A stretch of 64,000 bases of DNA, from contig METB01000001.1 in NCBI GenBank assembly GCA_001771185.1, positions 186,631-250,630 of the forward strand. The letters run 5' to 3'. The notes under the pieces were generated by a model, which saw only the letters and a list, made by a program, of their open reading frames with translations, was not told the origin of the DNA and searched no databases. How positions within the stretch are numbered: the first letter of the stretch is position 1; each line of letters begins with the position of its first letter. Origin of the DNA: a candidate division Kazan bacterium RIFCSPHIGHO2_01_FULL_44_14. Its GTDB lineage: Bacteria > Patescibacteriota > Kazan-3B-28. The translations under genes were made by a program, and so were the position numbers. Of this stretch, positions 6,153 through 60,081 are shown piece by piece.

Positions 6153-6203
6153 ATCATGCTGAATTTACAATGTCCCGAGTTTACCGAAGGGGTTCAATAT
6201 CTA
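6153..6203. repeat. Copy of a dispersed hairpin element (CATGCTGAA...GTCCCGAGTTTACCGAAGGGGTT) between the two GT4 genes, followed by a CCGCCAGCTGGCGG palindrome.
   Basis: Near-identical to the segments at 16683-16737, 17015-17065 and 20143-20252, all seen directly. Confidence 0.7.
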
Positions 6204-9845: not shown

Positions 9846-10154
9846 ATGTACTATGTGTACATCTTACAAAGTAGACAGGATGGCAAGTTGTATATTGGCT
9901 ATACAGCCGATTTGCGGTCGCGATTCAGAGAACACAACCAAGGTCTCTCGCAAGCTACTCGCCATCGTCAGCCATTTGATCTCGTCTACTATGAGGCCTT
10001 TAAGGCCAAGAAGGATGCCGTGGTTAGAGAACGGATGATTAAGCAATACAAGCAAGGTTATACCAATCTCAAAAAACGCATCTCAGCAAGCCTTGAACCT
10101 AGAAAGTGGGGGGAGGAAAGTCCGGACACCATTCTAAATCAGGAAAGTCGCTAA
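9846..10154 (+). CDS. Small GIY-YIG nuclease-domain protein (URI/YhbQ-like). Its C-terminal about 20 codons overlap the 5' part of RNase P RNA.
   Basis: MYYVYILQSRQDGKLYIGYTADLRSRFREHN. One of four paralogues in the window. Confidence 0.7.
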   Translation: MYYVYILQSRQDGKLYIGYTADLRSRFREHNQGLSQATRHRQPFDLVYYEAFKAKKDAVVRERMIKQYKQGYTNLKKRISASLEPRKWGEESPDTILNQESR

Positions 10155-10167
10155 CGGCGACCGTTGC

Positions 10168-10297
10168 CAGTGCTTCGCACTGGGAAATTTATCCAATCTC
10201 TCCAATCTGACCAATCTTACCAATCTAAGAAATTAAATTGGCGAAGGTTGGAATAAATTGGATTAAATTGGTTAGATTGACCAATGCGGAGCGTTGG
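10168..10297. repeat. Hairpin element copy 1 inside rnpB (CAGTGCTTCGCACTGG, an AT-rich imperfect palindrome, CCAATGCGGAGCGTTGG).
   Basis: Same architecture and partly identical sequence to 10331-10445 and to the 23S inserts at 42974-43105 and 43741-43893. Confidence 0.7.
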
Positions 10298-12888: not shown

Positions 12889-14745
12889 ATGGCCCGGAAG
12901 AATTCACTAAAATTATCTATTCCCAACAACCTAGTGGCATTAACTACCCAGGAAATTATAGCCATGAGTTTTGGGTTTCTGCTTTTACTAACTCCTTTGC
13001 TTAGTACTGGCCTGGCTCCCTTTTCTGGTGTCTACGATCAGAATATGTGGATACTGGTTGCAACCGGCACATTCCTAGTGGTCGGGCTGCTGCAATGGCT
13101 CCGGTTGTCCCAACGGTCATTTCAATGGAATTTAATTGATCTTTTGGCTCTTGGCTGGGGAATTTGGCTACTAATAACTACTCTCACCTCGATTAATCCA
13201 ACTGACAGTTGGTTCGGCGGTGTCCATCGCACCGGCAGTTTATCGCATTGGTTGGCGCTATTAACCATCTATTTTTTGATGCGCCGATTGGTACCATCAT
13301 TCAGCTCGGTATGGCAGACACTACAAACCACGATTATTTATTCGGGTACGGCAGTTGCTATTGTCGGCTTGGCCAAACTTGCACTTGGGACACAGACCAG
13401 TCCGGAATTAATCGGGTTGCTTGGCAATCAAAACTTCACCGCTTATTACCTAGCAATTACTTTAGTAACCACTTATGTTTATTGGCTGACCAACCGCTTG
13501 AATTGGCGCGACCCCGCCATTCTGGCATTGCTCATTCAAGTAGTTGCTATTTGGTACACCAATGCCAAGTGGATATATTTCATAGTGCCAGTGATTCTAG
13601 TTGTAATTTTAATTGTCGCAATCCGTCATCTCCATATACACCGTGCTAAACAGTGGTTAACTGCTGGTCTCGTAGGTGCTGGCGTTATAACAATATTGGG
13701 CAGTTTTTGGCTGGATGGCCAGGCCTACTTCAACTTTAATTTCTTTTCGTTCACTAACCGGCTCCATGCTTGGGAAGTATCCTGGCAAGCCAGTTTAGAT
13801 CGGCCACTCTTTGGCTGGGGATTGGAAAATTACGATAATGCTTTCCAAGCTAACTTTCAACCGAAGTTTGAAGATGCAGTTGGCTCAACCGAAACTTTAG
13901 ATCGGGCTCATAATTTCATTTTTGATTATCTGGTGTTTACTGGTTGGCTAGGATTAATTTTGTTATTAACTTGGCTAGGGATGGCCATTGCGATTGGTTG
14001 GCAACACATCGGTAAAAATCCTTTAGCCATCTGGGCAATTGGTGTAGTAATAACTTACATCTGCATCAATCTGCTAGGATATGAGACCATCGCCACGACT
14101 GCGCTATTAATGTTAGCGCTAGCTTATTTAGGCACTTTATCTAAACCAATTTTCACGATGCCAACTCGATTAATCCATCCTTATGTTGGCCTAGTTGGTA
14201 TAGCGTTAACCATAGTATTAACAATGCAGTTTGTGATTATGCCGTGGATAGCCACTCGCAGGGCTTGGCAGAGTGCACTCCAATTTGACTTAACTAAGTT
14301 CAATAATGCCCTAGAGATTGCCCCCTATTTAAAACCGGAATTGGCTTACTACTTAATCGTCCCAGCTTACTTTCCAACTGAAGATATGACGCCCGAGTTC
14401 GCTGGTAGATTAGCCAATTACCTAGAACAAATCAAAGGGCATCGCGATGATCAGCCAGGTTATCATCTGGCAATCGTGAAGGCCTGGGAAATGTCTAATT
14501 CACCCAATCGGCTCCAAAAGATGAAGAATAATCTCGTAGCCGGAATGGCAACCTATGACAACAATAACGGTTACTACTGGGCATTCTTGTCGGCAATCGA
14601 ATTAAAACTTGGCAATACCGAATCTGCTTTATCTGCCATCGAGCGAGCCAAACAACTCAATCCCAACTCCAAATTCACAGCCGACACCGAGGCATATATT
14701 CTGTCGACCATCAACGAACAGCCCACCACCGATGACACGACTTAA
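12889..14745 (+). CDS. O-antigen ligase / Wzy_C-family polytopic membrane protein with C-terminal TPR-like repeats.
   Basis: At least ten TM helices, the Wzy_C signature RAHNFIFDYLVFTGWLGL, and C-terminal helical repeats (AIERAKQLNPN...). Confidence 0.65.
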   Translation: MARKNSLKLSIPNNLVALTTQEIIAMSFGFLLLLTPLLSTGLAPFSGVYDQNMWILVATGTFLVVGLLQWLRLSQRSFQWNLIDLLALGWGIWLLITTLTSINPTDSWFGGVHRTGSLSHWLALLTIYFLMRRLVPSFSSVWQTLQTTIIYSGTAVAIVGLAKLALGTQTSPELIGLLGNQNFTAYYLAITLVTTYVYWLTNRLNWRDPAILALLIQVVAIWYTNAKWIYFIVPVILVVILIVAIRHLHIHRAKQWLTAGLVGAGVITILGSFWLDGQAYFNFNFFSFTNRLHAWEVSWQASLDRPLFGWGLENYDNAFQANFQPKFEDAVGSTETLDRAHNFIFDYLVFTGWLGLILLLTWLGMAIAIGWQHIGKNPLAIWAIGVVITYICINLLGYETIATTALLMLALAYLGTLSKPIFTMPTRLIHPYVGLVGIALTIVLTMQFVIMPWIATRRAWQSALQFDLTKFNNALEIAPYLKPELAYYLIVPAYFPTEDMTPEFAGRLANYLEQIKGHRDDQPGYHLAIVKAWEMSNSPNRLQKMKNNLVAGMATYDNNNGYYWAFLSAIELKLGNTESALSAIERAKQLNPNSKFTADTEAYILSTINEQPTTDDTT

Positions 14746-16400: not shown

Positions 16401-16647
16401 ATGTATATTTTATGTCATTCTGAGTCCGTCAGCTGATGGACGAAGAATCTAGGCATGAGCCGTCCCGGATAGCCGGGACTAGATCCCACCGCCTTCAGGG
16501 GGTCTCGCCAGAGGCGGATTACTTCGTTCTGCCCCAATGGGGCCCCTTCGGGGCTAGATAGCAGGACTACGGAAGGATCTGTGATGAAAAGTTATGGTAG
16601 GCCTTCGGTTCTGCCGTACAGCAGGCAGGTCAGCGTCTCATACCTCC

Positions 16648-16737
16648 CGTCATGCTGAACTCGTTTCAGCATCTCATATTTCACGTCATGCTGAACTTGC
16701 GATGTCCCGAGTTTACCGAGGGGTTTCAGCATCTCGA
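16648..16737. repeat. Hairpin repeats (GTCATGCTGAAC...GTTCAGCATC) overlapping the 3' end of the GIY-YIG pseudogene.
   Basis: Same family as 6153-6203, 17015-17065 and 20143-20252. Confidence 0.7.
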
Positions 16738-17006
16738 ACCAAATCTTTCCATTTAGGGTTACTTGCTTCTATTAGATTAATTTTCCACTGCCGGTGCCAA
16801 TTTTTAAGCTGTTTCTCTCTTTGAATCGCTTTGGCAATGTCAGAGTATTCTTCCAAATATACCAAATGATACAGACGATATCTTTGAGGAAAAGATAGGG
16901 TGGTCCTGGAATGTAAATCGAGTCAATTTTCAATTCCGCTGGTCACTCCAATATACAGTGTGCCACGGGGTTTATTGGTAAGAATATAAACAAATCCTAC
17001 TTTCAT
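16713..17006 (-). pseudogene. GIY-YIG nuclease gene interrupted by an in-frame TGA at codon 28 (rc TCA at 16923-16925). The N-terminal 27 aa and C-terminal 69 aa are in the same frame.
   Basis: Minus-strand translation gives MKVGFVYILTNKPRGTLYIGVTSGIEN*LDLHSRTTLSFPQRYRLYHLVYLEEYSDIAKAIQREKQLKNWHRQWKINLIEASNPKWKDLVRDAETPR*. Both halves align to the intact paralogue at 17620-17904. Confidence 0.6.
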
Positions 17007-17014
17007 CGGGTATA

Positions 17015-17065
17015 GATCCCGAAACCCCTCGGCGGGCTCGGGACATCGCAAGTTCGGGATGACAT
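17015..17065. repeat. Hairpin repeat copy (GATCCCGAAACCCCTCGGCGGGCTCGGGACATCGCAAGTTCGGGATGAC).
   Basis: An inverted copy of the 16683-16737 sequence with a few substitutions. Confidence 0.7.
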
Positions 17066-17070
17066 TATAG

Positions 17071-17478
17071 TTATTTCTTAAAAATAAGTAGTTTAGGAGC
17101 CAAAAAGTTCCATAAGAAAATGACTCCAATCGAAAGAATTTTGACAAGATTGACATCCCATCCAAATATTATACTTAGAATATAAATAAAGGTATTTGAA
17201 ATTCCCACTCCCACCGTGACCACGACCAAATAAAACGGTAATTGAGTTTTCCAATTTCCTTCCGTATCACCAAAAGTCCATAATTTATTCCAAACAAAAC
17301 CATTAGTTGCCGCAATCAAAAACGCCACAGTATTAGCAAGAATAATCTGCCAGTGGAAATACAAAAACAAATTCAACAAGCCGATATCAATAGCGGTATT
17401 TACGATACCAACTGTGGCAAATCTTAAAAATTGACGTAGTATGACGGAATTTAGAATTTGGAATTTGGAATTTAGCAT
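17071..17478 (-). CDS. GtrA-family membrane protein (polysaccharide-synthesis associated).
   Basis: FLRFATVGIVNTAIDIGLLNLFLYF...FVWNKLWTF. The 5' end lies in a (GAATTTR)n heptamer repeat, so the exact start is uncertain. Confidence 0.7.
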   Translation of the reverse strand: MLNSKFQILNSVILRQFLRFATVGIVNTAIDIGLLNLFLYFHWQIILANTVAFLIAATNGFVWNKLWTFGDTEGNWKTQLPFYLVVVTVGVGISNTFIYILSIIFGWDVNLVKILSIGVIFLWNFLAPKLLIFKK

Positions 17479-17491
17479 TAGAACTTTATTT

Positions 17492-17610
17492 TTGTCATCC
17501 CGAGCATTACCCTCTTGTCATCCCGAACATTACCTTCTTGTCATTCCGAGTGTTACCCTCTTGTCATCCCGAGTGTTACCCTCTTGTCATCCCGAGCGTA
17601 GTCGAGGGAT
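17492..17610. repeat. Tandem repeat of about 4.5 x 23 bp (TTGTCATCCCGAGCATTACCCTC).
   Basis: Units read directly at 17492, 17515, 17538, 17561 and 17584. The last unit merges into the inverted repeat that flanks the GIY-YIG gene. Confidence 0.85.
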
Positions 17611-17619
17611 CTATTATCT

Positions 17620-17904
17620 TTATTCCCATTGCATTGATATATCCTCCCATCCTGGATTCATCCGTTGAATCAAGGTCTCTTTCTTACTACGACGCCAACC
17701 TTTAAACTGCTTTTCGCGTGCAATAGCAGATTCCACATCCAAACAAGATTCAAAGTAAACTAATTGTTGAGTTTTGTATTTTGACGAGAATCCAGGGATC
17801 AATTCGTGTTCATGTTCGTACGCTCGTCTGTTTAAATCATTGGTAACACCGACATACAACACTCCTGAACGACTGGCCATAATATAGACATAGTATTCTT
17901 TCAT
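17620..17904 (-). CDS. Small GIY-YIG nuclease-domain protein, flanked by imperfect inverted repeats.
   Basis: MKEYYVYIMASRSGVLYVGVTNDLNRRAYEHE. Flanks are GTCATCCCGAGCGTAGTCGAGGGATC (17587-17612) and rc CTTGTCATTCTGAGCGAAGCGTTAGCGGAGTCG (17915-17955). Confidence 0.75.
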   Translation of the reverse strand: MKEYYVYIMASRSGVLYVGVTNDLNRRAYEHEHELIPGFSSKYKTQQLVYFESCLDVESAIAREKQFKGWRRSKKETLIQRMNPGWEDISMQWE

Positions 17905-17993
17905 TATAAGATTCTTCGACTCCGCTAACGCTTCGCTCAGAATGACAAGAGGGACATATTTTTTCCTATATTCTAGATTCTAAATTCCAAATT

Positions 17994-18719
17994 CTAGCCT
18001 TTTCGAGCAATTACCAAAATACTGCTCCCCCATGGGAAATGCCCACCATCAACCAAATAATCGGCTTCAATCCGACTGAGATTAATTAACACTTTGTCCA
18101 TCCGGGAAGTAGTTGCGATGTAAGAAGTTTTTGGTTTGGTACCTTTAGTAAATAATCTAACCAGTACCACCACCGGAAAAGTAAAGAAGAAAAATGGCGA
18201 AATAAATTGGATTGTAAAACCGGCCTTTCGAAATTTAGTTTTCAACTCACCAACCGAATAACGCCGATAATGGTGCAAGGCCTGATCGTGAGCTGACCAT
18301 AACCATTGATACGCTGGCACAGTTATCATCAAGTATCCACCCAACTTGATGGCCTGCCACCAAGATTTTAACGCGGTTTCGTCTTCTTCGATATGTTCTA
18401 AAACATCAAATGCTGTCACCAAATCAAATTGGTCGGGTAATTCTAGATTTGTACCATCAATTTGAACCAAAGTGTCATAGGCCCGTTGCTGTCGACAATA
18501 ATTTAACGCCTCGGGGCTAGAATCAACTCCAGTCACTTTCCCCCATTCCTTCAACCACCAGTAATTAATGCCGGTGCCACAACCAATATCCAATACCTGC
18601 TTATTATCTTGAGGTGGTAGCCATTTAGCCAGCACTCGACGCAAAATTTCCCGTCGACCAATATGCCACCAGTAGTTCTGCTCCTGTTTGTGCATCTGCT
18701 CGTATTCGGCCAGTTCCAT
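17994..18719 (-). CDS. Class I SAM-dependent methyltransferase.
   Basis: Motif I VLDIGCGTGINYWWL and a post-I acidic residue (VTGVDSS). Confidence 0.75.
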   Translation of the reverse strand: MELAEYEQMHKQEQNYWWHIGRREILRRVLAKWLPPQDNKQVLDIGCGTGINYWWLKEWGKVTGVDSSPEALNYCRQQRAYDTLVQIDGTNLELPDQFDLVTAFDVLEHIEEDETALKSWWQAIKLGGYLMITVPAYQWLWSAHDQALHHYRRYSVGELKTKFRKAGFTIQFISPFFFFTFPVVVLVRLFTKGTKPKTSYIATTSRMDKVLINLSRIEADYLVDGGHFPWGSSILVIARKG

Positions 18720-20142: not shown

Positions 20143-20252
20143 CCGTGTCATCCTGAACCCCTTCTCGTGTCATCCTGAACTTGTTTCAGGATCCCCGCCG
20201 GAGATGCTGAAATCCCTCGGCTGGTTCGGGACATCGTAAATTCAGCATGACG
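20143..20252. repeat. Hairpin repeat cluster (GTGTCATCCTGAAC x2 ... GTTTCAGGATCC ... GATGCTGAAATCCCTCGG...TTCAGCATGACG) just upstream of proS.
   Basis: Same family as 6153, 16683 and 17015. Its core also occurs inside argS at 25380-25510. Confidence 0.7.
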
Positions 20253-23831: not shown

Positions 23832-25808
23832 ATGCATCTATTAATTCAGATACAAAACCAGATCAAGCAGGCCATTACCAAAACCTGGCCAGATTTGTTG
23901 ATACCAATTATCGAGGTAACTCCGGCGCCCAATTCTGTTGGACAGCAGAACAATTTCGGTGACTATTCTTGCGCAGTGGCTCTTAATCTTGCTAAACAGT
24001 TACGAGCCAATCCGCTAGAGATTGCCGAACAACTAAAAAACGCTCTCGGTCAAGTTGAGTTGATTGCCGACACTACCGTAACCGCCCCCGGCTTTATTAA
24101 CTTCCATCTTGATTACCCCACTGTTGCCCAAATCATTCTTGCCCCCGCAACTCGCAACTCGCAACTTGCAACTCGTCCCCGCAACATTGTCATCGAACAC
24201 ACCTCTATCAATCCCAACAAAGCCGCGCATGTCGGACATTTGCGAAATGCCTGTTTAGGCGATTCGTTGGCACGGGTTTTGCGGACTCTTGGTCACCAAG
24301 TTGAAGTCCAAAATTACATTGACGATCTTGGACTGCAAGTCGCCGACAGCGTGGTGGCTTACGAAACTTTCGGCAAACTACCGGAAGGCGTTGCTTGGGA
24401 CAAATGGTTTTGGGAAGTTTACGCTAAAATTCAACCCAAATACGAAAGCCAACCAGAATTGATAGAACGGCGTGAGGCCATTCTTAAAGAAATGGAGCAG
24501 GGTCAAAATCAGACCGCTAAACGGATTGTTAAAGAAATGGTCTCGGCTCATCTGACCACTTTAAAACGATTCGGTATTGCCTACGACAATTTGGTTTATG
24601 AACATGACATTGTCGGTCATCACTTATGGGACAATGTTTTTACTGAACTAAAAAATAAACGACTAATCGTTCAACCCAAGTCCGGTAAGCACAAAGGGGC
24701 CTGGATCGTGAAATTTGGCACAACCGAAGATGAAGATAAAGTTCTAGTTCGAAGTAACAGTGTGCCAACCTATGTCGCCAAAGATCTGGCTTATGCCCTG
24801 TGGAAATTTGGACTGACTTCTACTCTGCCTGGCTATACCCGAAAGTTTTCTCAAGCCGATGAAGTGGTAAATGTAATTGATAATCGGCAGGCCTATCCTC
24901 AAGCCGTCATCAAACAAACCTTGTCCAAATTGGGTTATCAGTCGCAGGCCGATAACTATTTACATTTAAGTTACGGCGTAGTCAAATTGTCAGAGCGCGC
25001 CATGCAAACACTTGGCGAAACCACCACCGGCAAAACCACTTATTCCATGTCTGGTCGGGCTGGCATCGGTGTAATTGTGGACGACTTGTTTACTACCGTC
25101 ATGGAGGCGCAAATTAAAGCTCATCAAACAGAACCCCAAATTGCCGAACAAATAGCAGTGGGTTCGATTCGTTATTATATGCTTAAAACCCGGCCGGAAC
25201 GGGAAATTATTTTCGACTTCGATGAAGCCCTGAAAACTGACGGCAATACTGGAATTTATTTGCAATACGCCTACGCTCGCGCCAATAATATTCTAGCCAA
25301 GGTAGCCCCTTCCCTCGACGGACTCGGGACCTTGCTCACCCTCGGGGAATTAAATATTGTTCCCCCGACGAACGGAGGGGTCACCCCTCGTCATCCTGAA
25401 CTCTTATCCCCTGAGCTTGTCGAAGGGTCAGGATTTATCCCCTCTGTCATCCCGAGTGCAATCAAAGAATCTACTCTGTCTCCTCGTCATCCTGAATTTA
25501 TTTCAGGATCCAATACGAATAAAGCCATCTTCGATAATCTCAACCCGCAGGAAAAAAACTTAATCAAAGTTTTAACTGAATTTGATTTTAATTTATCTCT
25601 TTCGGCTGATGAATTAGACCCATCCAAACTTTGTGATTATGCCTATCAACTGGCCAATGCTTTCGCCAAATTCTATGAGACCAGCCCGGTGGTGGGGGCA
25701 AACACCGAAGCCCAAAAAGAGTTTAGAACCGGATTGGTCACAGTATATGCCAAAGTGCTATCAGAGGTTCTTTCACTACTAGGTATCCCTCAACTCGATC
25801 GGATTTAA
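23832..25808 (+). CDS. argS: Arginyl-tRNA synthetase carrying an in-frame insertion of about 55-60 aa derived from a repeat element.
   Basis: HVGH motif, DALR-type C-terminus (YAYQLANAFAKFYET); 658 aa against about 580 typical. The extra segment maps to 25330-25510. Confidence 0.9.
   Translation: MHLLIQIQNQIKQAITKTWPDLLIPIIEVTPAPNSVGQQNNFGDYSCAVALNLAKQLRANPLEIAEQLKNALGQVELIADTTVTAPGFINFHLDYPTVAQIILAPATRNSQLATRPRNIVIEHTSINPNKAAHVGHLRNACLGDSLARVLRTLGHQVEVQNYIDDLGLQVADSVVAYETFGKLPEGVAWDKWFWEVYAKIQPKYESQPELIERREAILKEMEQGQNQTAKRIVKEMVSAHLTTLKRFGIAYDNLVYEHDIVGHHLWDNVFTELKNKRLIVQPKSGKHKGAWIVKFGTTEDEDKVLVRSNSVPTYVAKDLAYALWKFGLTSTLPGYTRKFSQADEVVNVIDNRQAYPQAVIKQTLSKLGYQSQADNYLHLSYGVVKLSERAMQTLGETTTGKTTYSMSGRAGIGVIVDDLFTTVMEAQIKAHQTEPQIAEQIAVGSIRYYMLKTRPEREIIFDFDEALKTDGNTGIYLQYAYARANNILAKVAPSLDGLGTLLTLGELNIVPPTNGGVTPRHPELLSPELVEGSGFIPSVIPSAIKESTLSPRHPEFISGSNTNKAIFDNLNPQEKNLIKVLTEFDFNLSLSADELDPSKLCDYAYQLANAFAKFYETSPVVGANTEAQKEFRTGLVTVYAKVLSEVLSLLGIPQLDRI
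25330..25510 (+). repeat. In-frame repeat-element insertion inside argS (GGGACCTTGCTCACCCTCGGGGAA ... CGTCATCCTGAAC ... GGGTCAGGAT ... TGTCATCCCGAG ... CGTCATCCTGAATTTATTTCAGGATCC).
   Basis: The first 25 nt match the intergenic GGAACCTTGCTCACCCTTGGGGAAGC at 57818-57845. The GTCATCCTGAAC/GTTCAGGAT hairpins match 20143-20252. The stretch encodes ...GTLLTLGELNIVPPTNGGVTPRHPELLSPELVEGSGFIPSVIPSAIKESTLSPRHPEFISGS... where E. coli ArgRS has about 14 aa. Confidence 0.75.
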
Positions 25809-38881: not shown

Positions 38882-39283
38882 TGGAGTCCTCCTTTTTCAA
38901 ATTGTCAGGGTGCCTACGCCCCCTGCTACCCGCACTATACTTCAATGTTAAAAAATCCGCAACTAGCGCGGGTTTTGCTCCCTGCCATAAGAGAAGGGCT
39001 GTCTTTTTGTTTTTTTGGCCCTAGGACAAGGACTGTTCTGAACTGAACTAAATCTCGGCGGGTGGAGCCGCATGTTTGATCCCGGCTTGCCGGGAGAGTT
39101 CGGCGGGAACACCCAGAGATTTAGTCAGTGAATAAGTCCGAGGACATTGGCCAGCGGTTTACCCCGCTTTGCCAAGACAAAGCGGGAACGGGTCGAGCGC
39201 CGTTATGCGCTCGGAAACAAAAAAAGAAACATTTCTGTTTCTTTCTGGATCCGTCAGCTGACGGATGACGACAAAAAATAGAC

Positions 39284-39592: not shown

Positions 39593-40183
39593 AATTTCTT
39601 TTATCTGTCATCCCCAACTTGATTGGGGATCCAGACAGAGACACAAACACTTTTCTGTTATTTTCTGGATTCCCTCCGCCAGTTGGCGGATTCGCGGGAA
39701 TGACAAAAAGTATAACTGGATGACGGACAAAATGGATTGAGCGCAGAGTACCCGCGACGGATTCTGCCGTTCGGCAGAACTTTCAGCCCACCTTGTCCTG
39801 CTGGACAGCAGGACGGTCCAACCCCGAAGGGGCCCTGGAATCTTTGGCGCATAATCCCCGCGACGACCTACTTTTGCAGGACCTTGCGGTCCAACTATCA
39901 TCGGCGCTGAGGAGCTTAACTGCTCTGTTCGAGATGGGAAGAGGTGTGACCTCCTCGCTATCATCACGGAGATTATAAGCCAAAGAATCTTACTAGGGTG
40001 CTGTTCGAGATGGGAATTCTGCTGTACAGCAGAATCCGGTATCATCACGAGCCTGCCCGCCAAAGTGATATCTATATTTAAAGTGGCTAATGACCTATTT
40101 TGAATGAGATTGAACGACGGCGGGAACTCTAAACTCAATGGGATAGATCCTGAAACAAGTTCAGGATGACATTTGTAAAAGTA

Positions 40184-40915: not shown

Positions 40916-41659
40916 CATGATAATCCATTATTACTAATGGCATAGACTATATCTTCATCCTTTCCGCCCACCGGCGGAGGAGGAGGTGGCGTGTGATTCT
41001 GCGCTACGGCAAAATCTCATCAGTTGTTCTTGCTTTGAACAATTGAATCAGTCGTTACGGGGAACAAGATGATGTGTTTGCAGAAATTGTTTGACCGTTG
41101 CTTGCGTGGTCGTGCGTTTCTTTGAGTAATTATACTTTGCGGTTTCATCCACTAGAGTCGCTCTAGCAAGCAACTCTTGGGGAGTGATTCTCTGGTATGA
41201 AGAACCAATGCCCTTAACGCATAAATCAATAACCTTCTGCGCTAGGACTTGTTTCAGTTGCAGATATGGCAACAATTTGGTTAAAACTTCGTAGACCGGC
41301 TGATACCCAACAATCGTGTATTCAGCCATCTGATCATTACGAACACGAACATATCCATGTTTCAGGTGGCCCTTAAGCCATTCGAGAAAGTGTTTTCTGT
41401 CTTCTTTTTGATAAAAGACAATGCTGACTCGAATCTGATAGCCGTGGACATATCCACTCCGTTTCACCAGTTGCGCCATAATGCAACCATCTCCATCCAA
41501 AAATCCTGCAATGTAAGCAAGTAATGTTTCTGCCATTATCTTGATCTTCCCTCGGGGTTACCCTTTTTCCGTTCGGTAGGAAAGTAGGGTTTCTCCGATA
41601 CAGCCACATTTATTGTACCGCATTTCTGCGGTAGAACGCAATGTGATTTACGTTCTGAA
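40916..41659 (-). mobile_element. Group I-type intron (744 nt) in 23S domain V, inserted between ...GGGTTCAGAACGT and CGTGAGACAGTTCGG (the E. coli ~2586-2593 region), encoding a LAGLIDADG homing endonuclease.
   Basis: Flanking exon sequences align to E. coli ...UAGAACGU|CGUGAGACAGUUCGG; the 5' exon ends in U, the insert ends in G, and it contains the 41048-41536 ORF. Confidence 0.75.
41048..41536 (-). CDS. LAGLIDADG homing endonuclease (single-motif, I-CreI-like size).
   Basis: MAETLLAYIAGFLDGDGCI... motif; 162 aa; located wholly inside the 23S intron. Confidence 0.85.
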   Translation of the reverse strand: MAETLLAYIAGFLDGDGCIMAQLVKRSGYVHGYQIRVSIVFYQKEDRKHFLEWLKGHLKHGYVRVRNDQMAEYTIVGYQPVYEVLTKLLPYLQLKQVLAQKVIDLCVKGIGSSYQRITPQELLARATLVDETAKYNYSKKRTTTQATVKQFLQTHHLVPRND

Positions 41660-41672
41660 CCCAGCTCGCGTG

Positions 41673-41704
<32 letters not shown>

Positions 41705-41718
41705 AACCTGCTCCAGCT

Positions 41719-41749
<31 letters not shown>

Positions 41750-41781
41750 AAACCGCTTCGTCGATATGGACTCTTGGAAGC

Positions 41782-41813
<32 letters not shown>

Positions 41814-42291
41814 TCGTTGAGCTTCGGCGCACCCATGTGCAACCGTCGGATCACTATATCCTGCTTTCGCATCTGCTTGACTTGTAGGTCTCGCAGTTAA
41901 GCTCCCATATACTATTGCGCTATCGTCCCGATTTCCATCCGGGACTAGGGAACCTTTGAACGCCTCCGTTACTTTTTAGGAGGCAACCGCCCCAGTTAAA
42001 CTACCCACCAAACGCTGTCCTCCTGCCAGATAATGGCTAGGAGTTAGAATTAAAAATGCATCAGGGTGGTATTTCACCGTTGACTCGCTGATGGCTAGCG
42101 CCACCAGGTCATTGTCTCCCACCTATCCTACACAAATAAATCTCTAACCCAACGCCAGGTTGTAGTAAAGCTCCACGGGGTCTTTTTGTCTTGCTGCGGA
42201 TAGCCGGCATCTTCACCGGCAATGTAGTTTCGCCGAGTCCCTCTTTGAGACAGTCATCAGACCGTTACGCTATTCGTGCGGGTCGGAACTT

Positions 42292-42578
42292 CATGTTAAC
42301 TCTATTTTTCAATAGAGATCAGACTATACCTTCATCTTGTCGCAAACCGTAGGAGATCGTTTTCGCGATATCCATAGTTTGTTTGCTAGACAAGAGCTGA
42401 CGTGTTGTTCCGCTTTACAGCAGAACCTCGCCTTTCGGCTCAGTCGTTACGGGTCACCTTAATTATAAGGTGTTCCCTCGGTATTAGCATATCCCCATAG
42501 CATAAGGATTTAGCTTTCACCGATATGAGTCAGTTTGCTTTGTAGTGTTACCACTACATTCGGGCAAGTTTCCCACCT
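42292..42578 (-). mobile_element. ORF-less intron-like insertion (287 nt) in 23S at the position equivalent to E. coli ~1931 (GUCGGGU | AAGUUCCGACC).
   Basis: Exon sequence is continuous with E. coli after removing the insert; the insert ends ...GTTAACATG (3' G) and follows an exon U. Confidence 0.6.
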
Positions 42579-42598
42579 ACCCGACAAGGAATTTCGCT

Positions 42599-42787
42599 CT
42601 TAGATTCCTTACACTAAGGACCATGTCTTCACCCCGATTAGTCGGGGGCGTGGTGTATGGCCTCTTGTAGCCACGTATGGACTTTCTTTATGTTGCCATA
42701 AAGTAAGGTAGCATTTTGCGAGTTATCGTATCGCTTATAACAGTCCCAGTCCTTCTCGATTTAACAATTTTAATTGTTCAACCGAGA
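42599..42787 (-). mobile_element. Short intron-like insertion (189 nt) in 23S at the position equivalent to E. coli ~1917 (GGUCCUAAGGU | AGCGAAAUUCC), 20 nt upstream of the previous one.
   Basis: The exon 20-mer AGCGAAATTCCTTGTCGGGT separates the two inserts. The insert contains an exon-mimic GGTCCTTAGTGTAAGGAATCTAAG near its 3' end. It is short for a group I intron, so its class is uncertain. Confidence 0.5.
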
Positions 42788-42823
<36 letters not shown>

Positions 42824-42973
42824 AGGGCTTAGTGTCAGAGCTTCGCCTTGCGGCTAACCCCTCTACGTGACCTTCTGGCACCGGGCAAGCGTCAGTCCCT
42901 ATACTTCCTCTTTCGAGTTAGCAGAGACCTGTGTTTTTGCTAAACAGTCGCCTGATGTCTTTAGCTGCGGCCC

Positions 42974-43105
42974 ACCTCACGCTCCGCGTGAGGAAATCTA
43001 ACCAATTTATTCCAATTTATTCCAACCTTCGCCAATTTATTTTCATAGATTGGTAAGATTGGTGAGATTGTTTAGATTGACTAAATTTACTCGTGCGAAG
43101 CACGA
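42974..43105. repeat. Hairpin intervening-sequence element in 23S helix 63, same family as the rnpB inserts.
   Basis: On the rRNA strand: CGTGCTTCGCACG, then an AT-rich segment (CCAATCTTACCAATCTA..TAAATTGGCGAAGGTTGGAATAAATTGGA) about 90% identical to 10200-10290, then CCTCACGCGGAGCGTGAGG. Replaces the E. coli helix-63 variable region. Confidence 0.75.
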
Positions 43106-43740
43106 TGTGGGCAGTCCTTATTCCGAAGTTACGGACGCTATTTTGCCGAGTTCCTTAAAGAGGGTTCTCTCGTGCGCCTGAGGCTACTCGCCCTATCCAC
43201 CTGTGTCGGTTTAGGTACGGATGCTTAATATTCTCGTTAGAGGTTTTTCTGGTCAAATTAGATCAGCCAAGTCGTATTGTCCCGAAGAACTCAACTTCCA
43301 TTCGTAGCTCACGGTTGCTCAATAAATTGAACAGTCCCCCGGATTTGCCAAAGGGACCCCATTAACTACTTAGACCAAGAAACCTATCTTGGCTCGGCCT
43401 ACCAACTTGCGTCGCCCCATCACTAGACGTGCAGACCGGTAAAGTCAGCATCCAGCCTACCTTTCGGCAGGTTGATCATCTGATCTACCAATTTGCTTGT
43501 CTTGGGCGAATATCAAGCAGTACAGGAATATTAACCTGTTGTCCATCGCCTACGCCTTGCGGCCTCGGCTTAGGACCGACTAACCCTGGGACGAAAACCG
43601 TTACCCAGGAAACCTCGGATAAATCGGCGTCAAGGTTTTTCACCTTGATCTCGCTACTCGTGCCAACATTCTCACTTCTGCGCGCTCCACCCAACCTCAC
43701 AGTTAAGCTTCACTGCTGCGCAGAACGCTCCCCTACCACA

Positions 43741-43893
43741 CCACTGCTACGCAGTGGAAGCACTAAATCCTAATTACTAAATTCTAAACAAGCCCCAAAT
43801 CCTAATGTCCCAAAAAATGTTTGGAAAATTGAATCATTGGAATTTGTTTAGAGTTTATGATTTCGAATTTCGTATTTCCATTGCGGAGCAATG
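43741..43893. repeat. Hairpin intervening-sequence element in 23S helix 45.
   Basis: CCACTGCTACGCAGTGG, an AT-rich palindrome, CCATTGCGGAGCAATGG. Inserted between ...GATACCGAAGATGCGGATG and TGTGGTAGGGGAGCGTTCTG (E. coli ~1164-1185). Confidence 0.75.
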
Positions 43894-43979
43894 GCATCCG
43901 CATCTTCGGTATCTAGCTTAGCCCCGTTACATTTTCGGCGCAGACACACATCGACCAGTGAGCTATTACGCTATCTTTA

Positions 43980-44010
<31 letters not shown>

Positions 44011-44518
44011 TTGTTAATGTGTCTCCACTTCCTTTCACACTTAGCTAGATTTAGGGACCTTAGATGGCGGTTTGGGCTGTTTCCCTTTCGACATACGACG
44101 CTTAGCCGCCGTTTTCTGACTCCCATGCTTTAACCAGACAGTATTCGGAGTTTAATTGGATGCGGTACGGTAAACCGCCCGAATCCATTCAGTAGCTCTA
44201 CCACTGCTGGGAACGCTATGAGGCTATACCTAAATATATTTCGGGGAGAACCAGCTATCTCCGGGTTCGATTGGAATTTCTCCGCTAACCACAGCTCATC
44301 ACCCCACTTTTCAACGTAGGTGTGTGCGGCCCTCCACTGCTTCTTAGGGCAGCTTCAGCCTGGCCATAGTTAGGTCACCCGGTTTCGGGTCTAATCCCTG
44401 CTACTTCAGTCGCGCTATTCGCACTTGCTTTCGCTTCGGATACGGATTAAAAATCCTTATCCTTGCAACAGAAATTAACTCGTTGGCTCATTCTACAAAA
44501 GGCACGCCGTCACCCCAT

Positions 44519-44676
44519 CAGCACACAATGCTGGATGAAATAACCAAATTCCAAATCACAAATCACAAACAAACTCCAAATTTAAATTTCTAAACAAAAA
44601 AAACAGAAAAATTATTATCTGGTGCTCATTTGATGATTGATTATTGGCGTTTGGTTACTCCAGCACTCTGTGCTGG
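44519..44676. repeat. Hairpin intervening-sequence element in 23S helix 25.
   Basis: AGCACAGAGTGCT, an AT-rich low-complexity palindrome, AGCATTGTGTGCT. Inserted just 5' of GGCGTGCCTTTTGTA (E. coli ~530-545). Confidence 0.7.
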
Positions 44677-44739
44677 CGGGGCTCCGACTTTTAATCGGGC
44701 ATTCGGTTTCAGGTACTATTTCACTCCCCTCACAGGGGG

Positions 44740-44779
<40 letters not shown>

Positions 44780-46062
44780 GAGAAATGATATTTAGCCTTA
44801 CCAGATGGTCCTGGCACATTCCGGCAGGATTTCACGGGTCCCACCGTACTTAAGAAATAATGTTCAGAGTGATTTTCTTTTCGCTTACGGGACTTTCACC
44901 CACTATGGTTGCCCTTTCCAGAGACCTTCAGCTAAGAAAATCATTGTTAACTCCTAATTTGGTCTACCGCCCAAAAATACATCACCCTTATAACCCTCTC
45001 CTACACAACGCCAGTAGGCTTTAACATGTAAGAAAGTTTAGACTCTTCCCTTTTCGCTCGCCACTACTTAGGGAATAACATTTGTTCTATTTTCCTCGTG
45101 CTAATAAGATGTTTCAGTTCACACGGTTCCCTCCTCATTGTCTATGTATTCAACAATGGGTTCCCGCCAATTCAAAGCTTGTATATCGCTACTACCCATT
45201 CGACTAATCAACTAATTATTTATCGATTGGAATGTTTGATACACCAGCCCTAAATTGGCGGGAGGATTGCTCCATTCGGACATCCCCGGATCACAGGTTG
45301 TTTGACACCTACCCGAGGCTTATCGCAGTCTACTACGTCCTTCTTCGGTCATTTCTCCCAAGGCATCCACCGCATGCCCTTGAGTAACTTACGCTCGTTT
45401 CTCCAAGAGACGAGTGCCTTGCACTTTAAATCGACGATTCAAGAAAGCGATTTTGCTTTCTTTATCTTTCTTTTCTTTCAGTGCATGTTGTCAACGAACT
45501 AAAAAATTCAAAGAATAACTGGAAGGGGCTAAAAAAATGATAATCCCTCGGCGCTGCTCGGGGTAAATTTTACTGCGTAAAAATTAAAAAGCAGGGCGTT
45601 CATCCCTGCTTGAAGTCAACAGTTAACGGATGAACTTAGATTTGAAGCGAATTTTGTAAATATAAAATAGCCAAGTCGTCTAGGCCAGAAGTTAAATTGG
45701 ATATTAGTTTCCTCAAAAGCTTATAAATAGTGTTATATGTGGTCTCACCAAAGTGGCAGAAGCACTAGTTGCAACGATACTATATATACCAGTTGCCCGC
45801 AAGAGATATTTTGCCATTCTGACCTGGAATAGTCAACCCCGTAGAGAATTTTGGACAGGCGCCTCTTGCCGGGTGCCTCCTGATACCAATCATCCAAAAT
45901 CTTCTACAGGGTCAAGGGGGGCCTGTCAATGGGTTATAATCAGGTTATAACTCCTATTCGTCCCGCCTGCCCCGTGCGAATGAAATGAGTCCTTCGGGGT
46001 TAGAAATCACCTACCGGGATAATCGAGGAACGGATAGAAGTAATTCATAAATATACGCTAGG

Positions 46063-48399: not shown

Positions 48400-48515
48400 T
48401 GGAGTATGTGTAATTTTGAATGATGAATTTTGAATTTTGAGTGAATATCTTAATGCCTTAATTTTGAAACATTCAGTCATTCGAGTTTGATTCGAAATTC
48501 GAAATTAAGAATTAG
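48400..48515. repeat. About 105-nt dispersed element (TAATTTTGAATGA..AATTTTGAATTTTGAGTG..CTTAATTTTGAAACATTCAGTCA..TTGATTCGAAATTCGAAATT); second copy at 51890-51995.
   Basis: The two copies align at about 90% identity along their length. Confidence 0.75.
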
Positions 48516-48617
48516 AAATTGTCCCAACGGATGGGGTGGCAAAAGAAACAGCCGTCAGTAGACGGCTTAGATTCTTCTTCTGCTGGACAGCAGAATCAGA
48601 ATGACAAGAAAATAAAA

Positions 48618-49900: not shown

Positions 49901-50146
49901 TTAGGTTAACAAGTGTTTATTGGCAAATGCTTTCCCAGAACCAGCTTTTAGATAGGTTTCGAACTTTTCAGCTTGGGCTTTTGTCTTGAATGCTATGTAG
50001 CAAATCATGTCCCACGGTTTGAACTTGCTAGTATGTGGCGATTGACCAGCGTTGTGTGCAACAAACCGAGATTTTAAATCGGATGTACTACCAATATATG
50101 TTTGCATTTTATTCTTATGACTGCGAAGCAGATAAACGTAATACAT
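49901..50146 (-). CDS. Small GIY-YIG nuclease-domain protein.
   Basis: MYYVYLLRSHKNKMQTYIGSTSDLKSRFVAHN; start at the internal ATG; lies next to tRNA-Ala. Confidence 0.7.
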   Translation of the reverse strand: MYYVYLLRSHKNKMQTYIGSTSDLKSRFVAHNAGQSPHTSKFKPWDMICYIAFKTKAQAEKFETYLKAGSGKAFANKHLLT

Positions 50147-50464: not shown

Positions 50465-51805
<1,341 letters not shown>

Positions 51806-51816
51806 TCAATCTCTTG

Positions 51817-51883
51817 TCGTCATTCCGGCGAAGGCCGGAATCGTATAAGATTCTGGATGCGCTTCGCTTACCAGAATGACGGG
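51817..51883. repeat. Hairpin element (GTCATTCCGGCGAAGGCCGGAATCGTATAAGATTCTGGATGCGCTTCGCTTACCAGAATGACGG); second copy at 63064-63162.
   Basis: A 45-nt core identical in both copies. Confidence 0.8.
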
Positions 51884-51889
51884 AATTCT

Positions 51890-51995
51890 AGCAAGTAATT
51901 TTGAATGACAAATTTTGAATTTTGAGTGGATTACCTAATGTCTTAATTTTGAAACATTCAGTCACTTAGATTTGATTAGAAATTAGAAATTGGGT
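51890..51995. repeat. Second copy of the about 105-nt element seen at 48400-48515.
   Basis: Direct alignment. Confidence 0.75.
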
Positions 51996-52104
51996 TACCA
52001 TAACTTTTCATCGCAGATCCTTCCGTAGTTCTGCTGTACAACAGAACGAAAGAGGACTTTTTACTTATAACTTTTCACTTCCCCAGTTCTATCATACCTA
52101 ATAA

Positions 52105-57762: not shown

Positions 57763-57866
57763 TTTTGGTTTTTATTTTTGACTAATTGTAATTGAATTTT
57801 TGGTAGTCCCTTTCCTCGGCAAGCTCGGAACCTTGCTCACCCTTGGGGAAGCACTATTTAAAATTA

Positions 57867-58227: not shown

Positions 58228-58347
58228 TCCCGTTGGAAATCACCTAACGGCACCCTCACTGCCCTGTCAAACAGGCACTTACTATAAACATACACTCATG
58301 ACACTAATATCGGACTAAAAACGCTAGGTCCCTTATTTCTAACGAGA
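58228..58347. mobile_element. MITE-like element (about 120 nt) with 13-bp terminal inverted repeats TCCCGTTGGAAAT / ATTTCTAACGAGA.
   Basis: About 90% identical to 59839-59968. A solo TIR lies at 58352-58364. Confidence 0.7.
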
Positions 58348-58486
58348 TGAATCCCGTTAGAAACTGTCCAGCCAAGGAGAAATTGGGTTCATCTAGTCAA
58401 CCAATGTTTACCACTAATACCTTCCATACCAGTTTTGCGAAAAAGAATTCCTGGAGAATTATTTTTCGCGTAAGGTTTCTAACGGG

Positions 58487-59968: not shown

Positions 59969-60081
59969 GAGTGAGCGGAGCGAATCGAAGGGACACATTT
60001 GGTATGGCCTTCAACGAAGTTTTTATCCTGAGCGTAGCCGAAGGGCTCAGGCAATAATTTCAATAGAAGATTTCTAACGGG

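Follow-up and report, generated by a model that had tools for sequence, protein, structure and literature searches.

The window, i.e. the whole 64-kb stretch of DNA that was analysed, belongs to the roughly 700-kb genome of a Kazan (CPR) bacterium and contains four small GIY-YIG genes. The original prediction took them for four genes of 80-100 aa, all of them tied to one family of hairpin repeats. All four open reading frames indeed match PF01541, but the one at 16713-17006 is not intact, being interrupted by an in-frame TGA, and the genes form two subfamilies, with hairpins at two genes and none at the other two. The former probably belong to the Ssn family (cd10448) of ssDNA nucleases, and each is boxed by inverted copies of its presumed cognate GTCAT-hairpin repeat. 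Ssn nucleases and Ssn-related motifs (SRM) make up a system published in 2025 (Chenal et al., Nat Commun, PMC11893778), of which the sequence facts first noticed here, mostly real, are a rediscovery. In that work, SsnA is the enzyme of Neisseria meningitidis and the Neisseria repeats are called NTS.

The intact Ssn-family gene (17620-17904, minus strand) encodes a protein of 94 aa, which is a 100% match to an 'endonuclease' of candidate division Kazan bacterium RIFCSPHIGHO2_01_FULL_44_14. It matched PF01541 over residues 4-75 (E = 1.5e-13) and no further domain. Pairwise BLASTP with the N. gonorrhoeae ssnA orthologue gave 49% identity over 85 aa (E = 1e-27), and tblastn against N. gonorrhoeae chromosomes (PLSDB) found a single place, with 49% identity, 89% coverage and E = 9e-18. 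Since homology to SsnA is defined in this family by a tblastn E < 1e-10 (PMC11893778), this value places the protein among the Ssn homologues, as judged from the gonococcal orthologue and not from the meningococcal protein itself. Y7, Y17, R27, H31 and E64 are kept. A C-terminal signature, REKQxKxWxRxxKxxLIxxxNPxWxDL, is found in the window Ssn and in gonococcal ssnA, and is absent from the GIY-YIG genes at 9846-10154 and 49901-50146. Similarity to UPF0213 structures was weak (1ZG2, E = 7e-4, PDB sequence search), and NCBIfam had no family for the window Ssn copies.

The second Ssn-family gene (16713-17006, minus strand) is a pseudogene, recognized by its in-frame TGA and its homology to gonococcal ssnA (45% identity, E = 2e-23, BLASTP). 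The TGA, at 16923-16925, stands in place of the nearly invariant Arg27 of the catalytic core, and the same stop is present in independent assemblies. When reconstructed, the product has 97 aa and the two window copies are mutually 40% identical. Loss of a catalytic-core Arg to a nonsense codon is predicted to have inactivated this copy.

The genes at 9846-10154 (plus strand) and 49901-50146 (minus strand) are UPF0213-like and are not part of the system. Their best solved relative is UPF0213 BH0048 (for the first gene, 1ZG2 with E = 1.5e-8), and their similarity to SsnA is restricted to a stretch of 70 aa with 34% identity in the first and to one of 28 aa with 50% in the second. Both adjoin RNA genes: the first ORF runs into the RNase P RNA, and the second gene lies 126 nt downstream of tRNA-Ala. 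No GTCAT was found within 200 nt of the first and no flanking GTCAT hairpin at the second, which has only one intragenic ATGAC.

Inverted repeats around the two ssn genes

In an SRM, GTC precedes a palindrome and a C follows it; cleavage depends on the three nucleotides 5' of the palindrome, and binding on the C at its 3' side (PMC11893778). Two such repeats face inward around the intact gene. On its 3' side, repeat and motif searches located a complete SRM, GTCATCCCGAGCGTAGTCGAGGGATC (17586-17612, plus strand), and on its 5' side sequence inspection and motif search located GTCATTCTGAGCGAAGCGTTAGCGGAGTCGAAGAATC (17910-17946, minus strand). The imperfect inverted repeats predicted at this gene are thus present, although the second had been placed at 17915-17955. 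The stop codon and the 3' SRM are 7 nt apart, and ORF and repeat have zero overlap. Brackets of the 17910-17946 type also flank homologues in the relatives L011, L014 and L184, and a near-identical copy of the 17586-17612 SRM is found in L011 (9969-9995). The predicted hairpins of the two SRMs comprise five outer pairs and a putative tandem G.A mismatch, and tandem sheared G.A pairs are proposed for the GTCATYCYGAGCG...CGARGRATC hairpin. With nearest-neighbour DNA parameters both are predicted to fold weakly, shuffled sequence doing as well (z = -0.19 and +1.41).

Distal to the complete SRM is a tandem array of 5' half-SRMs, each consisting of GTCATCCCGAG and a 12-nt spacer. TRF reported it at 17492-17597 (plus strand) with a period of 23 and 4.6 copies, in agreement with the 23-bp array of the original prediction. 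One unit fewer is present in assembly L009, and the array differs from that of a sister strain by 10 SNPs in about 100 nt.

The pseudogene has a 50-nt composite SRM on its 3' side (16685-16734, plus strand), detected by repeat search and structural scan. The inverted partner of this repeat, also a 50-nt composite SRM that faces inward, lies on the 5' side (17014-17063, minus strand), 8 nt upstream of the ATG. The two are 84% complementary and 279 nt apart, which means that this gene is bracketed too. Next to them lies a 25-nt SRM, GTCATGCTGAACTCGTTTCAGCATC (16649-16673, plus strand), equal to the right-hand SRM of a gene-less pair in L184. The 16685-16734 SRM covers the final 22 nt of this ORF, i.e. 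about 7 codons past the conserved ...NPKWKDL end, so that the ORF merely runs into the adjacent repeat. The idea that the repeats derive from the 3' coding ends of the genes has to be given up, because there are repeats at either side of a gene and the conserved domain does not include them. Both units of ssn and repeats are compact (about 360-380 bp) and are delimited by inverted repeats of the form GTCAT...ATGAC.

The repeat family across the window

The GTCATYCYGARY motif occurs 14 times in the window, compared with 0.09 expected. A strict structural scan, in which an SRM was defined as GTCAT followed by a palindrome closed by AT..AT and a C, with a DNA MFE <= -4, returned 21 sites versus 2.1 +/- 1.4 in shuffles. 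GTC 5' and C 3' of the palindrome are present in all 21, as the scan required this form, and bulged copies likewise read GTCAT...ATC. Altogether, about 30 copies and half-copies are found in 64 kb, nearly all of them intergenic, in the form of solos, four gene-less inverted pairs, tandem 5' half-sites and an in-frame cluster in argS. The 50-nt repeat recurs at the three places where this had been claimed (6154-6202, 17014-17063 and 20202-20251; 78-86% identity), but the copy at 17014-17063 is the bracket of the pseudogene and not a solo.

Two of the solos have a hairpin nested in their loop, one at 16414-16449 (plus strand; motif and structural scan, MFE -5.7 kcal/mol) and one at 48570-48605 (minus strand; structural scan, -7.8 kcal/mol). 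Others are GTCATCCGTCAGCTGACGGATC at 39248-39269 (minus strand, structural scan), a copy at 40146-40170 (minus strand; repeat search and structural scan) that is 100% complementary to 20168-20193, and a degenerate 50-nt SRM at 6153-6203 (plus strand; repeat search, 86%), which is without the G of GTC. All four gene-less pairs face inward. That at 20147-20251 comprises a half-site at 20147, an SRM at 20169-20193 (plus strand) and a 50-nt SRM at 20203-20251 (minus strand), with z = -4.07 and -1.95. The pair at 39607-39704 (39607-39631, plus strand; 39668-39704, minus strand; z = -2.7) adjoins the 5S rRNA. The left member of the pair at 51819-51880 (z = -4.28), GTCATTCCGGCGAAGGCCGGAATC, is much like a Neisseria NTS, and the pair at 63064-63159 has a right arm identical to 51849-51880. 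Short members of the family are predicted to fold strongly as DNA (z = -4.07, -4.28 and -2.70). SRM inverted repeats are also mixed with other repeat units in mosaics, for example at 16401-17070 and 51800-52050.

Three SRMs, starting at 25390, 25446 and 25486, lie within argS (25390-25510, plus strand). They belong to an in-frame insertion of 68 codons (about 25305-25508), and the ArgRS of the window counts 658 aa versus 588-597 aa in relatives.

The published degenerate SRM pattern, HGTCWYN(0-2)YYVSBRHN(0-5)WNVSBRGN(0-2)RNCYNB, which was drawn from 29 genomes of 4 phyla (PMC11893778), matched only 2 unrelated places of the window and did not hit any hairpin. At stem positions where the window SRMs have A/T or G.A, the pattern demands G/C. 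Compared with the published motifs, the window stems are AT-richer, often with a putative tandem G.A mismatch.

Gain and loss of the cassettes among relatives

In relatives with the same MTase-GtrA-GT2 synteny (L184/L185, L186 and L014), ssn is absent from both the MTase/GtrA and the GtrA/GT2 spacers, and GtrA abuts GT2 in L027 and L058 too. These orthologues were identified by protein search and contig look-ups, since tblastn with GtrA over 80 GT2 loci missed most of them, which are too divergent. The GtrA/GT2 spacer, which carries the pseudogene cassette in the window, contains a gene-less SRM pair in L184, and the MTase/GtrA spacer of L014 contains a degenerate solo SRM. An ssn of the same lineage is found between miaA and thrS in L184 and L014, where L186 has none. 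L011 has one as well, at a site unrelated to these, and its cassette has near-identical SRMs in a different genomic context. The identity of these same-lineage genes (60-67%) is close to the GT2 divergence of 71-73%. A reciprocal empty site at miaA would follow if 12889-14745 encoded ThrRS, but BLASTP showed that it is unrelated, and this argument was dropped. The absence of ssn from both window sites and its presence elsewhere in syntenic relatives indicate that the units were gained, lost or relocated, and they thus appear to behave as mobile or exchangeable modules among intergenic spacers. Their mobility, which we deduce from comparing genomes, is suggestive but unproven. The pair of L184 is ambiguous, as it fits an insertion of the gene into an SRM pair as well as a gene loss that left the pair behind.

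In the version of the original prediction weighed here, each GIY-YIG gene would be an autonomous selfish mini-transposon, the hairpins would come from the 3' coding ends of these genes and the solos would be excision footprints. One part of this view stands, namely that ssn units bounded by inverted repeats are gained, lost or relocated in relatives; it does not extend to all the genes, two of the four being repeat-free. The bracket does resemble terminal inverted repeats, relatives have cassettes at some sites and none at others, there are gene-less inward pairs in the window and one in L184 at the very spacer of the window pseudogene, and one window copy is decaying. Among the features used to recognize insertion sequences and MITEs, terminal inverted repeats and presence/absence polymorphism at orthologous sites are observed, while target-site duplications, near-identical copies (in the window) and a transposase are not. 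Inspection of the flanks of both cassettes disclosed no target-site duplication: the sequences outside the GTCAT ends differ (...TTTATTTTT versus AAGAGGGAC for one cassette, ...ATTTCAC versus ATTATAG for the other) and share only a pyrimidine-rich base at position -1.

No near-identical ssn copies were seen at different sites of one genome, the Kazan genome being covered by its 64-kb window. With an identity of only 40% between the window copies, recent transposition is not demonstrated, and two copies in one Magasanikbacteria MAG shared 66% identity over 160 nt only. An identical homologue protein occurred on 12 contigs, always in the same context, and this too provides no evidence of recent transposition. 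Furthermore, the repeats lie both 5' and 3' of the genes, outside the conserved domain, with an ORF overlap of 22 nt in one case and zero in the other; SRMs are far more numerous than the genes and have diverse stems; and recombination between inverted repeats would lead to an inversion, not to a footprint. Finally, what has been demonstrated for GIY-YIG Ssn is the cutting of ssDNA only, and no rejoining (PMC11893778). We consequently find the mini-transposon explanation doubtful. The gene-less pairs of the window and the GtrA/GT2 pair of L184 are compatible with the idea of a footprint. The solo copies may be footprints of excision, but they may as well be MITE-like copies that arose independently or targets that were present beforehand.

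Recurrence of the bracket and interpretation

We surveyed 80 Ssn homologue loci from many phyla. GTCAT was present upstream on the sense strand at 59 loci, downstream on the antisense strand at 66, and at both positions, forming an inward bracket, at 53. Flanking inverted repeats thus do recur at other copies, as the original prediction demanded. The density of GTCAT was 8.7/kb near the genes compared with 2.0/kb farther off. Complementary closure was found at 129 of 206 sites, versus 27.6 (maximum 40) after permutation, and the outer stem thus covaries across the 80 genomes, in support of the predicted pairing. Tandem half-site arrays like the one at 17492-17597 were present at 17 of the 80 loci. 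A scan for GTC followed by a hairpin of 6 bp or longer was noisy (2.2/kb near versus 1.8/kb far), and all-vs-all megablast of the 80 loci returned mostly orthologous contexts, uninformative for element boundaries. At the gonococcal ssnA locus, the NTS repeats share the GTC-AT...AT-C build.

These data make it very improbable that the hairpins are ordinary intergenic palindromes of the host (REP-like, terminator-like or acting at the RNA level), next to which the GIY-YIG genes lie by chance. Nearly all copies are intergenic, several further hairpin families cluster in the same spacers, and one SRM is terminator-like by score, all of which would fit such palindromes. However, the inward GTCAT bracket is present at 66% of the 80 homologues, in unrelated phyla and at about four times the background density, the SRM sequence travels with the gene into new contexts (L011), and the UPF0213-like GIY-YIG genes, equally intergenic, are without SRMs. 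Terminator-like sites are not enriched in the window (4 versus 1.7 +/- 1.7), no Rfam match to the repeats was obtained at a permissive threshold, and biochemistry ties Ssn to the motif (PMC11893778). Free-standing GIY-YIG homing endonucleases flanked by remnants of double-stranded homing sites are very improbable, too. GIY-YIG is a classic homing-endonuclease fold, NCBIfam gives weak matches to group I intron endonucleases at their N-terminus, and the 23S gene of the window has a group I intron. However, the proteins are single-domain, about 94 aa long and without a DNA-binding domain, and the grpIintron_endo matches span about 30 residues at 17-21 bits versus a cutoff of 56. The genes lie in intergenic spacers, outside any intron or intein, they are flanked by dispersed hairpins of a high-copy family and not by a unique split target, and the closest characterised relative cuts ssDNA only (PMC11893778).

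We therefore interpret the locus, with a probability of about 0.8, as two cassettes of the Ssn/SRM system of Chenal et al. (2025), and the scattered hairpins as further SRMs. In this interpretation, a cassette consists of a single-domain GIY-YIG gene of roughly 94 aa between inward-facing SRMs. By analogy with the Neisseria and Wolbachia enzymes, Ssn would bind the SRM only in single-stranded, folded DNA and would cut the SRM-bearing strand a few nucleotides 5' of GTC; with inward-facing SRMs, each strand would be cut once, immediately beyond the cassette. If there is movement, transposition, SRM-guided recombination and ssDNA uptake are candidate chemistries. The mobility of NTS-ssnA-NTS units and the role of the system outside Neisseria are questions left by Chenal et al. 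(PMC11893778).

A bolder proposal, which we put forward as tentative and on balance unlikely, is that SRM-ssn-SRM units are a distinct class of autonomous mini mobile elements of about 0.4 kb, with a GIY-YIG ssDNA nuclease as their sole protein. The inward SRMs would then direct one cut outside each end, on opposite strands, the gene-less inverted pairs would be MITE-like derivatives, and recurrent cleavage and repair would have left the tandem arrays of 5' half-sites as scars. Such elements might land preferentially in single-stranded hairpin loops, which would account for SRMs that sit inside the loops of other SRMs and for the in-frame argS cluster. If this were true, Ssn/SRM would be the dominant repeat-generating system of this CPR genome of about 700 kb.

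The cassettes resemble the Neisseria Ssn/NTS system by their GIY-YIG protein, which has a single domain, about 94 aa and 45-49% identity to the Neisseria orthologue, by the GTC, AT-closed palindrome and C of the repeats, and by the position of repeats at either side of the gene, their many copies, mostly intergenic, and an IS-like look. They differ from it by their tandem arrays of 5' half-sites, by the neighbourhood of two divergent Ssn lineages, of which one is a pseudogene, by the in-frame SRM cluster in argS and by a host from the CPR (Kazan), a group unmentioned in PMC11893778. In addition, the window SRMs face inward, with GTCAT distal to the gene, whereas they face outward at the one Neisseria locus that we examined, that of gonococcal ssnA.

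Other systems are comparable in part. Like REP/BIME-RAYT (IS200/IS605-like Y1), Ssn/SRM combines dispersed intergenic palindromes recognised as ssDNA hairpins with a cognate enzyme gene between inverted repeats, and its repeats cluster into mosaics with others; unlike RAYT, the enzyme has a GIY-YIG nuclease fold and not HUH/Y1, no strand-transfer chemistry is known for Ssn, and an unsystematic look at the window brought no RAYT gene to notice. Rickettsia palindromic elements (RPEs) are likewise short palindromes that can insert in-frame and non-destructively in housekeeping genes (PMC10969869), as SRMs do here in argS, and the gene-less SRM pairs resemble prokaryotic MITEs as derivatives of a parent element (PMC10969869). 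However, SRMs measure 25-50 nt and RPEs about 150 bp (PMC10969869), no target-site duplications were seen at the SRM units, and the parent 'element' of SRMs encodes a nuclease, not a transposase. The dRS3/NIME mosaics of Neisseria also have inverted repeats of SRM type interleaved with other units in intergenic regions, but the intervening repeat families differ and there is no evident link to phage integration in the window.

The locus adds a minimal, repeat-laden CPR genome to the hosts of Ssn/SRM, with intact and decayed cassettes of two lineages side by side, each with its own SRM subtype, and the ssn-free orthologous sites of relatives make cassette gain and loss directly testable. The SRM variant missed by the published pattern (GA-type stem, inward orientation, tandem half-sites) dominates among the 80 homologues; if the pattern does miss this class, SRM association has probably been undercounted in the published work. 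Each Ssn lineage may represent a new ssDNA-cutting specificity, a candidate for use in biotechnology. The SRM cluster of argS connects the system to the old puzzle of the palindromic repeats found in rickettsial genes.

Small GIY-YIG genes of the Ssn family

Previous work has characterised SsnA of Neisseria meningitidis, a GIY-YIG protein with a single domain and 94 aa (CDD cd10448; Chenal et al. 2025, PMC11893778). Its binding to the hairpin repeat NTS (CGTCATTCCCGCGMAVGCGGGAATCYRG) is limited to ssDNA, which it cuts a few nucleotides upstream; cleavage is governed by three bases 5' of the palindrome and binding by the C directly after it (PMC11893778). Among Ssn homologues across bacteria, 71% are flanked by at least one Ssn-related motif (SRM) and 42% by one on each side, and the authors likened NTS-ssnA-NTS to an insertion sequence or a REP/RAYT pair (PMC11893778). 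What we describe here rediscovers this system; the host is new and the motif class is a variant one.

Pfam GIY-YIG matched all four mini-genes of the original prediction, but the 16713-17006 copy is interrupted by an in-frame TGA (16923-16925). This stop, which is also found in independent assemblies (100% identical across the region), replaces Arg27, a nearly invariant residue of the Ssn family, and the copy is a pseudogene. The protein encoded by the 17620-17904 copy is 100% identical to an 'endonuclease' annotated in candidate division Kazan bacterium RIFCSPHIGHO2_01_FULL_44_14. The window Ssn protein had a single match in N. gonorrhoeae chromosomes from PLSDB (tblastn, 49% identity, 89% coverage, E=9e-18), at an ssnA orthologue surrounded by canonical NTS repeats. 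Compared pairwise with this orthologue, the intact copy showed 49% identity (E=1e-27) and the pseudogene 45% (E=2e-23). Because the alignment of the other two genes (9846-10154 and 49901-50146) with Ssn is confined to the generic N-terminal GIY-YIG core, and neither the Ssn C-terminal signature nor nearby GTCAT hairpins were found for them, their sequences indicate that only two of the four genes (17620-17904 and 16713-17006) belong to the Ssn/SRM system. The other two are nearer to UPF0213 structures (1ZG2, E=1.5e-8).

The two N. gonorrhoeae records in PLSDB (about 2.17 Mb) are filed as plasmids yet are chromosome-sized. In the gonococcal locus L094 (NZ_CP119142.1 1881119-1882573), the 5' end of the tblastn-matched ssnA frame lacks an in-frame ATG, a nearby ATG being one base out of frame; this copy may be pseudogenic, or its translation may begin elsewhere.

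Inverted repeats and their pairing

The inverted repeats predicted around the intact gene were found, with coordinates corrected to 17586-17612 (+) and 17910-17946 (-). The 50-nt end repeat said to recur without a gene is present at 6154-6202, 17014-17063 and 20202-20251, but the second of these is not solo: it pairs in inverted orientation with 16685-16734, from which it is separated by 279 nt and to which it is 84% complementary. Since it also lies 8 nt upstream of the ATG of the pseudogene, inverted GTCAT...ATGAC repeats closely bracket both ssn copies. The proposal that the hairpins derive from 3' coding ends found no support. The pseudogene ORF overlaps the repeat by its last 22 nt only, after the conserved ...NPKWKDL end, and the stop codon of the intact gene lies 7 nt outside the repeat, with no overlap.

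The motif GTCATYCYGARY occurs 14 times in the window, against 0.09 expected. Good copies all share the architecture of Neisseria NTS, GTC + AT...palindrome...AT + C, though NTS faced outward at the single Neisseria locus examined whereas the window SRMs face inward. A scan for this form, limited to DNA folding energies of at most -4 kcal/mol, gave 21 sites, while dinucleotide-shuffled sequence gave 2.1 +/- 1.4; the total rises to about 30 in 64 kb once bulged copies and half-sites are counted. Except for one cluster in argS, all are confined to spacers between long ORFs. The published degenerate SRM pattern matched no hairpin in the window, where stems are AT-richer or have GA opposite GA. Strong ssDNA folding was predicted for the short copies (z = -4.1, -4.3 and -2.7) but not for the two SRMs bracketing the intact gene (z = -0.19 and +1.41).

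Further evidence on the bracket came from 80 Ssn homologue loci (L095-L174) of many phyla, in which GTCAT was counted within 150 nt of the gene. It was found upstream on the sense strand at 59 loci, downstream on the antisense strand at 66 and in both places at 53, so that the flanking inverted repeats do recur at other copies; the outward arrangement on both sides was seen at 9. GTCAT density was 8.7/kb near the genes and 2.0/kb, the random expectation, beyond 350 nt. In 129 of 206 inward-facing GTCAT sites next to these homologues, the exact complement of the variable stem triplet, then ATC, followed downstream, while permuting the triplets among the sites gave 27.6 closures (maximum 40). 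Pairing of the stem is thus supported by covariation, despite the weak folding of the intact gene's own SRMs. The triplet is followed by GA(G/A) in 99 of the 129 closed sites, which places GA opposite GA in the stem, a putative tandem G.A mismatch by analogy with known DNA structural motifs. That host palindromes became associated with ssn genes by chance is very improbable in view of these cross-phylum statistics. The single-domain build of Ssn and the high-copy, dispersed flanks likewise speak strongly against the ssn genes being homing endonucleases. A role of the SRM as an RNA-level or terminator element found no support in a terminator scan and an Rfam search of the window.

The predicted 23-bp tandem array was recovered at 17492-17597 (period 23, 4.6 copies). 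It is unstable: exactly one unit is missing from one assembly, and there are 10 differences in about 100 nt from a sister strain that is about 97-98% identical. Tandem 5' half-site arrays were present at 17/80 homologue loci, always distal to a complete SRM (0.87 vs 0.11 pairs/kb), and also in the relatives' loci L011 and L014.

In many SRMs the loop itself contains a further hairpin (16414-16449, 48570-48605, 16685-16734; flanks of homologue loci L095, L103, L116 and L118), the inner hairpin of 16414-16449 being the stem of the 39248-39269 SRM. The 50-nt repeat resembles a short SRM carrying a degenerate SRM-like insert. Other repeat families share mosaic spacers with SRMs (16460-16650, 48410-48506 / 51895-51991, 51996-52035, 58228-58360 / 59839-59971), including a 97-nt repeat, a 40-nt repeat (95% identity), CCTGCTGGACAGCAGG and CCTGCCTGCCGGTAGGCAGG hairpins and TCCCGTTAG...CTAACGGGA repeats. 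These spacers call to mind Neisseria NIMEs and E. coli BIMEs.

Presence and absence of the cassette in relatives

We compared spacers in a series of relatives built from GtrA and GT2 orthologues and graded by divergence, and found ssn present at some orthologous sites and absent at others, which speaks for gain, loss and relocation of the cassettes. The window has an intact cassette in a 515-nt MTase|GtrA spacer and the pseudogene cassette, with other repeats, in a 670-nt GtrA|GT2 spacer. In L184/L185 (GtrA 79%, GT2 73%) these spacers are 64 nt without SRM and 105 nt with a gene-less inward SRM pair, whose right member in L184 is identical to window 16649-16673; the cassette is at miaA|thrS. 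In L014 (GT2 71%), it is likewise at miaA|thrS, while MTase|GtrA is 86 nt with one degenerate SRM and GtrA abuts GT2, as it does in the more distant L027 and L058. In L186, a 690-kb relative, MTase and GtrA overlap, GtrA|GT2 is 40 nt without SRM, miaA|thrS has neither SRM nor ssn, and ssn, with SRMs that are near-identical, is found in an unrelated location (L011). In the window, synteny at miaA|thrS is broken and miaA has no adjacent ssn; sequence comparison ruled out the ORF neighbouring miaA as ThrRS, so there is no reciprocal empty site there. None of 79 other GT2 loci had ssn within 5 kb of GT2.

The Ssn proteins at these sites are 60-67% identical, similar to GT2 (71-73%), so a single Ssn lineage occupies three or more different sites among related genomes. 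At GtrA|GT2, the cassette may have entered an existing SRM pair, or L184 may have lost the gene. The idea of a selfish mini-element, left open in PMC11893778, gains comparative support here. Against active transposition, no target-site duplications were seen at the window cassettes, the two ssn copies share only 40% identity, an identical homologue on 12 contigs is always in one same context, and Ssn is known as a nuclease only.

In ssDNA, Ssn binds the SRM in its folded form, and cleavage takes place 5' of GTC (PMC11893778). With inward-facing SRMs, two cuts would be predicted just outside the cassette, on opposite strands, exactly where the half-site arrays are located; the arrays may have arisen as scars of repair, or may serve the single 3' arm as alternative partners for pairing. 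Speculatively, the cassette could move by an ssDNA route or be exchanged through recombination at SRMs, possibly during DNA uptake.

Window 16463-17235, spanning the pseudogene cassette, has zero SNPs over 773 nt relative to the sister strain (L187-L190), while divergence in the surrounding genes is 1-7%, with about 50 SNPs in the methyltransferase and 10 in GtrA. Recent recombination or transfer could account for such a tract. AT-rich inverted heptamer arrays, GAATTTA x6 and CTAAATT x4.4 (17447-17488, 17966-17996; arms of 27 nt, 89% complementary), lie outside the whole intact cassette, and the left one codes 11 extra N-terminal GtrA residues missing in most orthologues. At the corresponding position, the empty L184 spacer holds the inverted repeat CCCGTTAGAAATT...AATTTCTAACGGG, which is shorter, so the cassette may lie within the loop of a hairpin that predates it.

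Insertions in argS and RNA genes

ArgRS encoded by argS (23832-25808) has 658 aa, compared with 588-597 in relatives. Residues 492-559 correspond to an insertion (about 25305-25508) that keeps the frame and has no stop; it lies between the catalytic and anticodon-binding parts, is made of another repeat (25301-25349, also at 57802-57850) and three SRM hairpins, and resembles the in-frame insertions of Rickettsia palindromic elements.

The RNA genes (23S rRNA with a group I intron, 5S rRNA, three tRNAs and an over-long RNase P RNA) fit a small CPR genome. UPF0213-like genes directly adjoin structured-RNA genes: the 9846-10154 ORF overlaps RNase P RNA by 70 nt, 49901-50146 is 126 nt downstream of tRNA-Ala, L014 3444-3692 extends into a tRNA, and L186 1609-1875, probably of this type by size and position, adjoins a tRNA-like sequence. 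The RNase P RNA gene has 651 nt (model, 367 nt). The 23S rRNA gene (41576-45394) has 3819 nt (model, 2925 nt), with the intron at 42300-42588 and further insertions, of a kind reported for CPR rRNA genes (cf. PMC11270868). An AT-rich hairpin-like element of about 125 nt (...CCAATCTTACCAATCTA...TAAATTGGCGAAGGTTGGAATAAATTGG...) is inserted in both genes, at 10170-10294 (+) and 42979-43103 (-), with 86% identity and the same orientation relative to the host RNA, and a related stretch, ATTGGCGAAGGTTGG, is found at about 10690-10720 of L011.
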